NCBI GenBank assembly: GCA_964016885.1
Contig: OZ024742.1
Location: 80,972,001 to 81,036,000 of the forward strand
Source: Eledone cirrhosa
Taxonomy: Eukaryota
DNA length: 64,000 nt
Direction of reading: 5' to 3'
Numbering within the stretch: position 1 is the first letter of the stretch; every line of letters begins with the position of its first letter. Both the position numbers and the translations under genes were made by a program. The notes beneath the pieces are model-generated. The model was not told the DNA's origin, ran no database searches, and worked only from the letters and a program-made list of their open reading frames with translations. Shown here in pieces: positions 873 to 63,062 of this stretch.

Positions 873-980
873 TATTGTTATACTTTGGGAGGGTCAGGTT
901 GCCCAAAGTATAACAATATCGGTTTCAACACACGTTTTCAGATAAAGAATCTTGCTAAACAAATTCGGAACGATATATAG
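873..980. mobile_element. Two-armed insert made of Penelope-like element 3' tails in (TA)n
   Basis: TATTGTTATACTTTGGG/CCCAAAGTATAACAATA inverted pair. Both arms and the ~60-bp right extension are homologous to the PLE terminus at ~49545-49620. Flanked by (TA)n on both sides. Confidence 0.7.
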
Positions 981-1120
981 GTATGTATATATATATATAT
1001 ATATATATTATATATATATATATATATATATATATATATATATATATATATATATATATATATATATATTATATATATATATATATATATATATATATAT
1101 ATATATATGTATGTATATAT

Positions 1121-1481
1121 AGTAAGGTGCATTATTGGTTGTGTAAAATGGTCCAATAAGTTTATGTTAGTAATATTAAATTCTCCACGCTTTTGTATAT
1201 CTCCAATTCCATTCGAGGGAACAGCTAGATGATGTAAAACGGAGTATAAGTATCAAAATGAAAATCCGAAGGCAAGGTAAAATTCCCTCCGTATGAGGGA
1301 ATGAATTCTGGAGAGAACATCGTTTTTTTTCTCCCTCATATCAAGAATTTGAAGACAATTCATTTTCACCTGATGAGATCAGTGATAATCGATCATGGCT
1401 TCACAATCGATCTATCTCTTATTGAAACATGTGTCGTGATTAAATGATTGGAATTTTACCTTGCCTTCGGATTTTCATTTT
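1121..1481. mobile_element. Hammerhead-bearing fold-back insert in (TA)n
   Basis: Perfect 32-bp inverted repeat 1255-1286 / 1450-1481, with a hammerhead motif between the arms. (TA)n on both flanks. Confidence 0.75.
1361..1446 (+). ncRNA. Type I hammerhead ribozyme motif
   Basis: CATTTTCAC-CTGATGA(1370-1376)...GAAA(1424-1427)-CATGT-GTC-GTGATTAAATG. Stem I TCAC/GTGA, palindromic ACATGT in stem III. Stem II is irregular. Confidence 0.7.
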
Positions 1482-59450: not shown

Positions 59451-62400
59451 ATATATGTATATAAAGACAGAGAGAGACAGTGGTAATGGAGGAGGACAGA
59501 GCAAATATAGATATATACATCGATTTTTAGCTCGAGACGCATATAAGACATTCGATTTCAAATCAAGGATACCTGCAAATACCTTATTTAGCAGAGAGAC
59601 GGTTGATTGGATGTCAAATCGATATTTTATATAATGTTAACACCTGTCCCACAAAATCTAACGTACCGGAACGTAAGATCGATATCTCTGTAATTTACCA
59701 CAAACTACGATTAATTTAGCATTTTTTGATTAACTCGAAATCCAGGATATATCAATACTTCGAATGTTGTTTAATCTTCCTACAGAGAAACGAAAACTTG
59801 AAGCAGTGGATTATTTCGTGCTATGTTTCCAATCTATATTATATAAAATTATAACATGACAGAAAATTTCACGAAACTCAAAGAGACTAAATTTAAAGAA
59901 TTGATTGATATACGGCATTAACATAAATAATGAAACCGACAAAAGAAGTATTTTTGTTGTTAAGAACATGTGTTACTATGCAAGAGATAATAACGGATAA
60001 TACCTTTCATGAAAATACAAATCAATATGTATATTCGAAAATAATGTGAAAACATAATACATCATTAAATCCATGTCGAAATTGTTTGACAGCAGAAAAA
60101 GTAGATTGCGTAATGAGCTAGCAATCTTTTTATCGCATACCGAATACCCGTAAAAATAAGAAATAAGTGAAGCTTGTATAAATTCCAAATCGATATGCGT
60201 TGAATTACTCTCATCACAAAATCCAAATCATAGCTATTGTTTTTGGCCCTACATACGTATCGCAGATTAAGTAATATTATAGTCCTAATGTAGAATATGT
60301 ATCAAGCTTAAATATATCCTCAAATATTCTCCTGAAAGAGGACATCAACAAGTAATTCATTATTCATTTCATGTAGTCATATTATACACAATATCCCACT
60401 CAATTACGCATTAAGACTGCAACAACATGTAGCTATTTGAATTACCTTATGCAAACAAATTTCTTTATCGAAATACATGAATACATGCTAAAAAAAAAAA
60501 TATAATTTCCAGTTTGATGATGTTAGATGTCATTCAATATCGGGAAAAGCAAAGGACACCAAAGGAGTGAGCAAATGTTACCAGTGATGAATTATAATTA
60601 CACCGAAACTTATTGCGTTGTGATATTATCACATCTCAAATTTATGATAGCGAAACAAAAATGAAGGTTTATTACACACACATATATGTAAAGCAAACCA
60701 TGTGAATATTTTTTCATTATCATGCTGAGTTATACTCATTGCTAATTAATACAAATCAATCAAGTTTTCAGTATCTCTCATAAGCTTTCAAAAATCAAAA
60801 TATTTATCAAATCTATACGATGTAATGGTTTCTTTACATCGTTACCTTGACATAATTAAGTGTTGGTAATGAGGAACTGTAATACTACAATACATTTATA
60901 AGGGCTCTTAAAATTATAGTGTATGACTACAACTGAAAATATAACATCACTAAATGCACATGTTGTTATACATAAACATAGAATATATCAGTCTAAATCA
61001 TGCTCTTCAAATAACGTTTCTCTTTTTACTCTTTCTTCTACTTTGATCAGGACATTCGGGTTACCGGGATATGTATATCTTCTGCTTTCTCTTTGGTTAG
61101 CTCATTCTTTACTGATTCCTCTGCCTTCTCTCTCAGTCACTTTTCTTCTCTTCCATAATTCTATGTATGTTTCTCTTTGTCTTCTTCCTCCTCATTCTCT
61201 CGTTTTTTTAAATCTTCGTGGGAATCCAAGAAATCGACTACTTCTCTTTGGTATGTTGATAGTGGTCTCTGTATTTTGTATGTATAATATCTAACTGTTT
61301 GAAGAACATGCAGTCTACAAGGTAAATGCCAGAGTAACAGTCCACTTGCTCAGGCTTTAAACATGCCCACAAAACACACACACACACCAACATACACACA
61401 CATAAAGGTGGCAGTATTTTGATGATGTTAATATGTTTTTCATATTATCAAGTAGAATGCGTTTGCTATGACTCTTTCGATTTGTAATCACATCATATAT
61501 TGATCTCTTCCCTATTAACGATGAAAATGTGTTACTTACTCACATTATAGTTGTTAATTTTAGAAGAACGTGCATTTTCGTAAACTTACTTTCGTACCTA
61601 CTGTTCTCATTCGACATTATGTAATGCTGTTTCAATGCAATGATGTTGCGCTATCTATAATGAGCATAAGTTACATACTGGTGATACATTTTGAATAGGC
61701 ACGTCATTAAATGTAATTTTATCTTGTCTTTGCCAATGTATCCTGTATTCAAGTGCTTAGAAAATAAAATTCACTGACGGCTATTAGGAATAATTTAGTA
61801 TACATCTCCAAAAGAGGGAATATCATAAAAATAGAGAATTGGCAATCAGTGAATTCAGATTTAATTATTCCTATCAATTACATTTTAGTAAGCTTTAGCC
61901 GGAGAAGAAATATCACCTTGATGTTTTCCGTTCCAAATTAATTAAAAGTTTTCTTTTTTTCTAATTATACATATTTATTTCACTTGAAAGTAATATTACG
62001 TCATATACTGCCATGCTTGTTTGTGTTGGTTATAAGTGGAAGCAATTAACGCATTTCATTTTATGGCAAGTGAAATTAATCGAGCAGACATTAAATATGA
62101 AGCATTGCAGTCGACATCATTTCATATTTCTGGATGTACGTAAAATCAAACAATGTCATGTTTTTAGATTTATATTAGACGGTAATGGGCTTTTGAGGGC
62201 TAATTTTATGCTAACTATAGAATTTCACCCACGCTGTCAAATATCGAAATCGACAAAATCCTTGAGTCGCCAGTGTCCACAAGATTGAAACTAAATTGTT
62301 GTTAATATCGAGTTTGGGATTCTCATATTCCTCTGCCATATTAAATGCGTGGAATACCATATAGGTGACCTACATTTAGCTATATTGAATGCATAGTGGA

Positions 62401-62663
62401 AAGATTTGCTAGATCGCAATTAGGAATAAATTGCGACAAAATAACCTGCAAATCAGCGGTAGATGGACGGGCGCCTCCTAGAAATAGCGGCCGTCTAATA
62501 AAATGTTTGTTGAAGAATGAATTATTAAGCATACATCGATGAAGTAAGACAATCACTGTCAATTCACTCTCAGATTTTCCTCGCTTTCTAGTACATTCGA
62601 ATTATATTAAGCCTTTTAATACCGGTATATATATATATATATATATATATATATATATATATA

Positions 62664-63062
62664 TTAGAAATTAGAAATTATAAGCTTTCACCGTATTTTA
62701 GACTAAAGGAATTTCTAGCCTGATAGTGGGGTTTATAACCCTCGGAGAAATGGAAAAAAGATGAATGGAAAATATGAACTTAGCTAAGTTCATAGCTTCT
62801 ACTTCGAATGGAAGGAGATGGGATGTGTATTGGTGTAATGGTAGCACATTGGTCTGGATAACCAAAGATGTGGGTTCGATTCCCATGTACGGCAACACTC
62901 ATCTTTTTCCATTTCTCCGAGGGTTATAAACCCCACTATCAGGCAAGAAATTCCTTTAGTCTAAAATACGGTGAAAGCGTATAATATCTAATTCCTAATT
63001 TCAAACTCGCGCATCGTTTCAAAAATATACTTACATGTTTACGTTTATAATTTGCTTGTTTT
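62664..63062. mobile_element. tRNA-headed SINE-like element with inverted 3' tail, in (TA)n
   Basis: Inverted arms 62664-62764 / 62899-62998 around a tRNA-like sequence, ~65-bp right extension, (TA)n on both sides. Confidence 0.8.
62824..62894 (+). pseudogene. tRNA-like sequence (pseudo-tRNA / SINE head)
   Basis: A box TGGTGTAATGG, D stem GTGT/GCAC, anticodon stem TTGGT/ACCAA (loop CTGGATA), T arm GTGGG-TTCGATT-CCCAT. The acceptor stem is partly unpaired. Confidence 0.7.

Follow-up and report, generated by a model that had tools for sequence, protein, structure and literature searches.

The window analysed here is a 64-kb stretch of the Eledone cirrhosa genome (assembly GCA_964016885.1, contig OZ024742.1, positions 80,972,001 to 81,036,000), which comprises 3.0 Gb in total, and (TA)n microsatellites are abundant in it. 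Inserts in these TA arrays are 5'-truncated 3' ends of Penelope-like elements (PLEs) joined head to head, and they derive from several PLE families that encode a reverse transcriptase (RT) together with a GIY-YIG endonuclease. The observation is real and genome-wide. The architecture itself is not new, since it appears in passages of PMC3846280 and PMC8557442; the new part is the copy statistics, which constrain the mechanism by which a structure of known kind is made.

The original prediction, made from the sequence alone, listed eleven inserts of the window and gave them one plan, two inverted arms between two (TA)n runs. Self-alignment bears this out for most of them, with inverted arms at 876-915 (short), 1256-1286/1450-1480, 4418-4523, 40677-41358/44493-45192, 45242-45533, 48021-48347, 59187-59444 and 62665-62767/62896-62997. 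Each of these inserts has one arm that abuts a TA run directly, whereas its partner extends by a family-specific tail of about 45 to 135 nt. The plan does not extend to 36680-39580 and 52643-53103, which join outward-facing ends of two different families, and 56041-56090 is an insert in which a tail is joined to a tail-less arm, but not a palindrome; 59181-59450 is without (TA)n on its left, where the tail starts near 59129 inside another repeat. The arms had also been said to stop at an internal TA-rich spot. The stop is real, but it is a fixed, family-specific second end: clustering of every TA-bordering end in the loci examined, by which the families were defined, gave 14 families (lettered below), each with two fixed ends 40-137 nt apart. 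This fixed second end matches the two RT start sites which define the PLE tail in the relevant part of PMC11167929.

The leftmost insert is a family F pair (876..985) with a short tail-less left arm and a tailed right arm (tail about 60 nt); positions 902-966 align with 49548-49612 at 85%, as had been proposed, although the latter belongs to a related end cluster and not to the same one. At 1121..1481 a tailed left arm (tail about 135 nt, only 31 nt of overlap) meets a longer tail-less right arm with a hammerhead that would be cut after 1435 on the + strand, and locus L230 holds both arms. A family H pair with an 80-nt family tail follows at 4349..4523. The insert at 36670..39580 consists of a tailed family A arm with a decayed PLE open reading frame (ORF; CxCX5C linker, minus strand), joined to an outward-facing 3' end of a different family at 39345-39580. 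The family B head-to-head pair at 40628..45192 has a long tailed left arm (tail about 48 nt), containing RT and GIY-YIG fragments on the minus strand, and a shorter tail-less right arm. A family K palindrome with a 65-nt tail at its right occupies 45242..45598, and a single family C arm lies on the minus strand at 45822..47952 with an RT and GIY-YIG ORF fragment (46571-47899); an inverted pair of family C is present in the block flanking it.

The family E palindrome at 48021..48434, with a tail-less left arm and a tailed right arm (tail about 85 nt), has a hammerhead in both arms (48068/48300), a 14-nt target duplication and a parent PLE of Hydra type. It is followed on the + strand by a partial tandem (48495..49540) made of a hammerhead-bearing pseudo-long terminal repeat (pLTR) with two 388-nt repeats and a 3' end at 49540, and on the minus strand by a tailed family D arm (49545..52632) with RT and GIY-YIG ORF fragments (50165-52685). 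In the mixed pair at 52644..53103, a tail-less family B arm (52644-52800) and a tailed family G arm (52794-53103, hammerhead cut after 52963) meet through a few shared bases; none of 39 other scored copies contains this B/G composite. A second mixed pair, absent from the original list, lies at 53499..56010 and joins a tailed family E arm with an internal deletion (to about 55020) to the tandem 3' end of another family. The other two cross-matches of the original prediction were found as well: 48136-48232 aligns with 53511-53566, and 52644-52800 with 40677-40833 and 45037-45192. At 56041..56088 a minimal family F event combines about 11 nt of tail, a short match judged by eye, with a tail-less arm of about 35 nt. 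The palindrome at 59129..59450 has its tail at the left, inside another repeat, and its right arm is flush with a short TA run. A non-coding family S pair (62665..63061, tail about 64 nt) carries a tRNA-like module at 62822-62894 on the + strand, and a tail-less arm of a related S subfamily lies at 63836..63960. Between 45822 and 56150 PLE ends are stacked end to end with TA runs between them, so insertions appear to reuse the TA arrays that flank earlier ones.

That families B, C, D, E, F and G are PLEs is established by their coding parts. The window's minus-strand ORF fragments (38236-39342, 41250-43352, 46571-47899 and 50165-52685) contain RT and GIY-YIG motifs, and the protein of 46574-47899 has atlas neighbours at 0.93-0.95 in clusters with HTH_animal, RVT_1 and GIY-YIG domains; the family E parent likewise has HTH_animal/RVT_1 neighbours. 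A single ORF with a PLE-type RT plus a C-terminal GIY-YIG domain is thus found by motifs and atlas together. A Pfam search of 11 window fragments returned LINE RT only, with no match for the window's PLE fragments or the family E parent; among five locus proteins RVT_1 with a weak GIY-YIG was found in L147 only, and a PDB sequence search gave 0 matches. The family E arm is the last 250 nt of a PLE which, in parents reached through the 53499 copy, consists of RT, GIY-YIG and then about 1.3-1.5 kb of 3' untranslated region, and the long parents themselves are head-to-head pairs, in which one arm begins at the end of the tail and its partner about 85 nt further in. PLE ORF matches pointing toward the end adjoin the ends of families E, F, B, M and N, and likewise G, in at least one copy. 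In the loci examined no parent PLE was established for H, K, P, Q and S, no ORF-bearing parent was found for K, and no autonomous partner for S, K or H.

By motifs, the family E parent resembles the Hydra clade: RW (RWK-like) and DKT motifs, a CxCX5C linker, CxxC and CxH around conserved E and N, no CCHH and a (TA)n target were read by eye in the translations of L141, L154 and L155. In families B and D the linker is instead of the CxxC type and the GIY-YIG core contains cysteines, which looks Neptune/Nematis-like when judged by eye. The N-terminal part of family D includes an asparagine-rich (AAC/AAT) stretch at 51417-52685, which recalls the N-rich inserts of rotifer Penelope ORFs described in PMC3846280. 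A pLTR or partial tandem organisation is present in L141, L168, L226 and the window (48495-49540), and family G forms tandems about 4.1 kb apart.

Many of the inserts had been said to carry hammerheads. A motif scan found full cores in only three of the eleven listed ones (those at 1435, 48068/48300 and 52963), shuffled sequences giving 0-1. Genome copies contain them in 81 of 116 (E), 19 of 23 (G), 11 of 23 (M) and 2 of 4 (U) cases, and a U3-A8 variant in 3 of 23 copies of K; the scan found none in H, S, N, F, P, Q, A, R, V, D and B. Rfam reported no hammerhead, only the tRNA and spurious hairpin and miRNA matches, and minimum-free-energy folds of the hammerheads, the tail and the tRNA were mostly no better than shuffles. 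A further hammerhead-like motif stands beside a TA run at 14588 on the + strand.

Beyond the window, the arms were confirmed to be outward-facing PLE 3' ends: in a hand count of the first 100 places listed for family G, 19 pairs were outward, 0 inward and 5 tandem. Variable junctions, several PLE clades on one plan and apparent priming at both target ends, all proposed originally, are supported. Six blocks at round coordinates, 600 kb in total, contained 28 pairs of a tailed and a tail-less arm from 13 families, with none in one block; this is a lower bound and scales to the order of 10^5 pairs per genome. A 100-kb block (G000:C5:60000001-60100000, L081-L090) is without any 20-nt TA run or inverted repeat match, unlike the other blocks.

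The arms follow a strict pairing rule. Same-family pairs were counted over 13 families wherever no TA run interrupted the segment, biased best-hit loci included: 171 of 173 joined a tailed to a tail-less end, one was tailed/tailed and one tail-less/tail-less. Only such pairing counts and the cases without overlap, which were checked a second time, were used, because BLAST bridges spacers and the automated spacer assignment therefore over-calls equal arms. The exact tail pattern of family E has 9,124 matches genome-wide, and a position-ordered sample was taken from the first 74 places listed, four being left out because their loci had already been sampled. Sixty-five of these 70 tailed ends are TA-flanked and 44 of the 65 have a tail-less partner; two meet a tailed copy (one runs into an ORF, one is rearranged), three stay open and the others are considered below. 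From the opposite side, 30 of 3,384 tail-less matches were inspected: a tailed partner was found inside the locus for 17 and by coordinates for 7 more, 4 were left unresolved, and two are the ends of one tail-less/tail-less event (L305/L306, G000:C1:35314208-35317246) whose flanks are identical in inverted orientation, possibly a true fold-back into the flank. Since both same-type classes are this rare, independent choice of site at each end cannot be responsible.

Each end had been proposed to copy an RNA 3' region; this stands for both ends, but the arms share a template variant and do not come from random RNAs. Over 56 family E events a minor allele occurred in both arms 93 times, while shuffled pairing gave a mean of 20 and a maximum of 47, and in eight diagnostic columns it was in both arms 84 times and in a single arm 3 times. 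Both arms of a copy were therefore copied from the same template variant, presumably from the same molecule. True MITEs (miniature inverted-repeat transposable elements) would be palindromes of fixed form that a DNA transposase moves as a whole or that are duplicated as one piece, and full-length look-alikes do make up 36 of 40 best matches for E and 40 of 40 for K. However, best-hit searches rank by likeness to the query and so favour full-length look-alikes, whereas in the position-ordered E sample the arm ends vary from about 50 to 3,400 nt and continue into PLE ORFs. Furthermore, the ends are unequal, variants are symmetric across the arms, and family E junction types recur on different haplotypes, which, taken with the shared alleles, argues against unit inheritance. 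Fixed length, equal terminal inverted repeats and unit inheritance were found neither in E nor in the other families. A fixed-length family had been named in advance as the finding that would speak for MITEs, and family K partly fits it, its centre being constant in 18 of 20 best hits, but other K centres and longer parents exist. The MITE explanation is largely refuted for E, F and G and is very improbable overall.

A candidate system for healing microsatellite breaks had also been proposed. Events were informative where an imperfection of the TA array near an insert end could be sought, directly duplicated, on the opposite flank; 8 of 14 such events, the window's copy at 48021 included, show a target duplication of 12-16 nt (one of 22), against 0.4-0.9 after shuffling, and two K copies show the same kind of duplication. 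These duplicated imperfections point to one event and a staggered cut by the element itself in a pre-existing array, not to the repair of random breaks. (TA)n arrays are fragile and insertion is almost always in (TA)n, as endonuclease-independent healing of spontaneous breaks would have it. The target duplications are nevertheless discrete, and a preference for (TA)n is among the properties reported for Hydra and Naiad PLEs in the corresponding sections of PMC8557442. An assembly artefact, also considered, is contradicted by raw short reads of three runs carrying the same species label, which contain both end types followed by (TA)n, strand-switch joints (in L226 at 1215/1513 and 1405/1564, of the non-overlapping type) and continuous depth over the centre at 48021. 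Break healing and artefact together are least probable of all.

The lengths and junctions of the arms bear on how the second arm arises. In family E the tail-less arm is longer in 22 events, in several by 1-3 kb, the tailed arm in 8, and the two are equal in 14 (p=0.016). Among 48 mapped E junctions the tailed arm stops inside the tail in 5 and at most 15 nt beyond it in 5 more, and non-overlapping arms also occur in families H, N and M. Where the tailed arm stops before its partner begins, neither arm can have been copied from the other. These data are difficult for fold-back, in which the tail-primed cDNA would fold on itself, be copied outward and join the other end at a TA-rich spot, later deletions making the arms unequal. 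Fold-back accounts equally well for strict pairing and shared alleles, self-priming was proposed in the relevant part of PMC3846280, and centres often lie on short palindromes (E, G, K, S). It predicts, however, a tailed arm at least as long as the tail-less one, and deletion has no reason to favour the tailed arm. Three non-overlapping events (L180, L198, L229) have zero private mutations; the tail-less arm keeps the exact hot-spot end described next while the tailed end varies from 51 to 244, and the junctions have inserts or 0-3 shared bases, not long microhomology. Fold-back may contribute alongside, but as the general explanation it is unlikely.

One 3-nt spot, situated about 260 nt from the end of the tail, accounts for 38 of 96 E arm ends, and the hot spots of E and G share TTC|ATATG, which is read here as a probable transcript start within the pLTR. 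Of 14 unambiguous ends counted by hand, 9 have an additional C there, as from a copied cap (p=0.002 against 0.25), but this is suggestive only, because inserts are common to both arms. Inserted bases were in general commoner than long microhomology: 25 of 48 E junctions were scored as inserts (about 5 partly ruler mismatch), and 7 of 48, four of them at the CATATG palindrome, share at least four bases (chance 2.5%). Hammerhead cleavage was rejected as the cause of the E centre, for its cut site is 134 nt from the tail end and the centre at about 260.

Programmed twin priming, in which a single RNA would serve as template at both ends of a staggered cut, with synthesis beginning at two fixed start sites, is given a probability of about 0.6. 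The two strands of a TA repeat would be cut by the enzyme of the element at positions about 12-16 nt from each other, and from either cut end reverse transcription would be primed at one of the two sites on the same RNA, the tail being the distance that separates these sites. The upstream-primed cDNA, which becomes the tail-less arm, would have a free template; the tail-primed cDNA would follow, an early stop giving non-overlapping arms and displacement of the first cDNA giving a palindrome, after which the ends of both cDNAs would be joined, in many cases with some bases added. Palindromes that are short and look fixed would result from priming in the 5' pLTR, where both cDNAs run off the 5' end of the transcript. 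Two primed ends do lie inside one target duplication, as in twin priming of the L1 type.

Several findings weigh against programmed twin priming. Sixteen of the 65 TA-flanked tailed E ends are single or have no partner resolved by script, although 2 of them have tiny tail-less arms and 4 ran off the locus; in family S roughly one event in three has a single arm. Private mutations are more frequent in asymmetric copies than in symmetric ones (23/3056 against 3/1825 nt, p=0.04; nearest neighbour p=0.009) and the older subfamily has 0 of 10 symmetric copies, so that central deletion or palindrome loss occurs later, as fold-back would have it. The recurrent K centre leaves a spacer on the tailed arm and several G junctions resemble short snap-backs at CATATG, both of which fit fold-back, and the hot spot is a self-complementary hexamer which could be an annealing site instead of a transcript start. 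Moreover, there are at least four mixed-family pairs, three of them in the window, and a single RNA cannot yield these. Eight apparent mixed pairs had come out of the pairing count: in C1, C15, L200, L258 and L280 short TA runs divide what are separate events, L209 and L279 were ambiguous, and L272 alone was kept. All four mixed-family pairs join a tailed end to an apparently tail-less one.

Such pairs (52644-53103, 36670-39580, 53499-56010 and L272), if single events, need two RNAs, as in dual priming, where each end copies its own RNA or tandem unit from the same source locus and an asymmetric complex fixes one site per end. PLE transcripts are tandem according to the pertinent part of PMC11167929, and dual priming gives overlapping arms without strand displacement. 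It has, however, no account of the shorter tailed arm or of its frequent stop near the second start site and needs an extra rule for one-of-each pairing, and the mixed pairs may be deletions between adjacent insertions; it is thus rather improbable. A broader form of programmed twin priming, by which it would be the hard-wired default of endonuclease-bearing (EN+) PLEs across clades, executed by an RT dimer on one RNA and parasitised by a ribozyme-free, tRNA-bearing RNA, is slightly favoured.

The candidate parasite is family S, a non-coding unit of 291 nt that occurs as anything from monomers to trimers and whose ends may be tailed, tail-less or inverted. Its exact tail pattern has 544 matches genome-wide, 408 forward and 136 reverse, a skew which perhaps comes from a large tandem array; further S loci are L232-L260 and L321-L350. 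The tRNA-like module scores above the Rfam threshold, and many S arms end near its 3' edge, which would fit tRNA-type processing or an RT stall. A tRNA-derived SINE (short interspersed element) was rejected for S: the module is internal to the tandem unit and a T5 run lies about 10 nt downstream.

Other repeats of the window are not part of this argument. Frameshifted ORFs at 6037-8851 have motifs which we take to be those of a Helitron-like Rep/helicase. Decayed LINE-like (long interspersed element) copies lie at 24154-28270, with a Pfam RVT_1 match at 27392-28267, and at 20794-23514, and near-intact relatives occur in L144. Inverted pairs with 88- and 84-nt arms occupy 16938-17483 and 17789-18370, the first flush with TA runs, and another repeat, which contains tandem units of about 153 nt, is present twice, at 3505-4126 and 32367-33588.

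If true, default twin priming would account by one mechanism for the tail, for the inverted pLTR and for stubs that look like MITEs. How tandem and inverted PLE structures form is called an open question in PMC8557442 and is left without validation in PMC11167929, in the passages concerned. The pairing rule, the length bias and the non-overlapping arms yield sharp predictions which can be tested in the existing in vitro system. In addition, MITE-looking palindromes numbering of the order of 10^5 across this genome are stubs of retroelements, likely misannotated, and an RT writing from both cut ends would bear on RT-based gene insertion tools.

Among known systems, insertions of EN+ PLEs with an inverted pLTR and a one-sided tail are described for Pen2a_Av (PMC3846280, which in the relevant part favours self-priming), in Fig. 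2 of PMC8557442 and for D. virilis Penelope (PMC2377424). As far as these descriptions go, the inserts resemble them in 5'-truncation, the head-to-head inverted partner, the one-ended tail, partial tandems, target duplication, in some families the hammerhead in the pLTR, and (TA)n bias; they differ in their tails, 40-137 nt here against 30-40, and in the very numerous ORF-less palindromic stubs. The passages on those elements do not mention the pairing rule, the length bias or non-overlapping arms, literature searches found no statement of two-ended PLE priming, and the passages of PMC13282606 do not discuss such palindromes. The Hydra clade (PMC8557442, section 11) appears to share its motifs, hammerhead and (TA)n targets with the family E parent. 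Opposite-strand hammerhead pairs 100-700 bp apart and the U3-A8 variant are noted in part of PMC4209133. Family S resembles the animal non-LTR retrozymes, as presented in part of 10.64898/2026.07.22.740005, in that its tandem unit is short and non-coding and has ends of PLE type; unlike them it has a tRNA-like module and no hammerhead (0 of 25 copies, none in four loci inspected), so it is not a non-LTR retrozyme in that sense. For the Anolis element PAc, sections of PMC11167929 report two RT start sites which bracket the tail, as the family ends do here, cutting and extension of both strands, AT-rich targets and a predicted dimer. Hammerhead cleavage is not needed there, and in family E the centre is found some 125 nt upstream of the cut site; by a word search, that paper ties the start sites neither to the two ends of one cut nor to an inverted arm. 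The nearest known mechanisms are L1 twin and dual priming, as far as presented in PMC2837659, PMC11702581 and 10.1101/2024.08.27.596794. There, as here, both target ends prime, inverted fragments lie inside one target duplication and the junction has a deletion or duplication. However, the second L1 primer uses variable internal sites in a minority of events, whereas here the site is fixed near the 3' end, the overlap is usually large and the route looks like the default.

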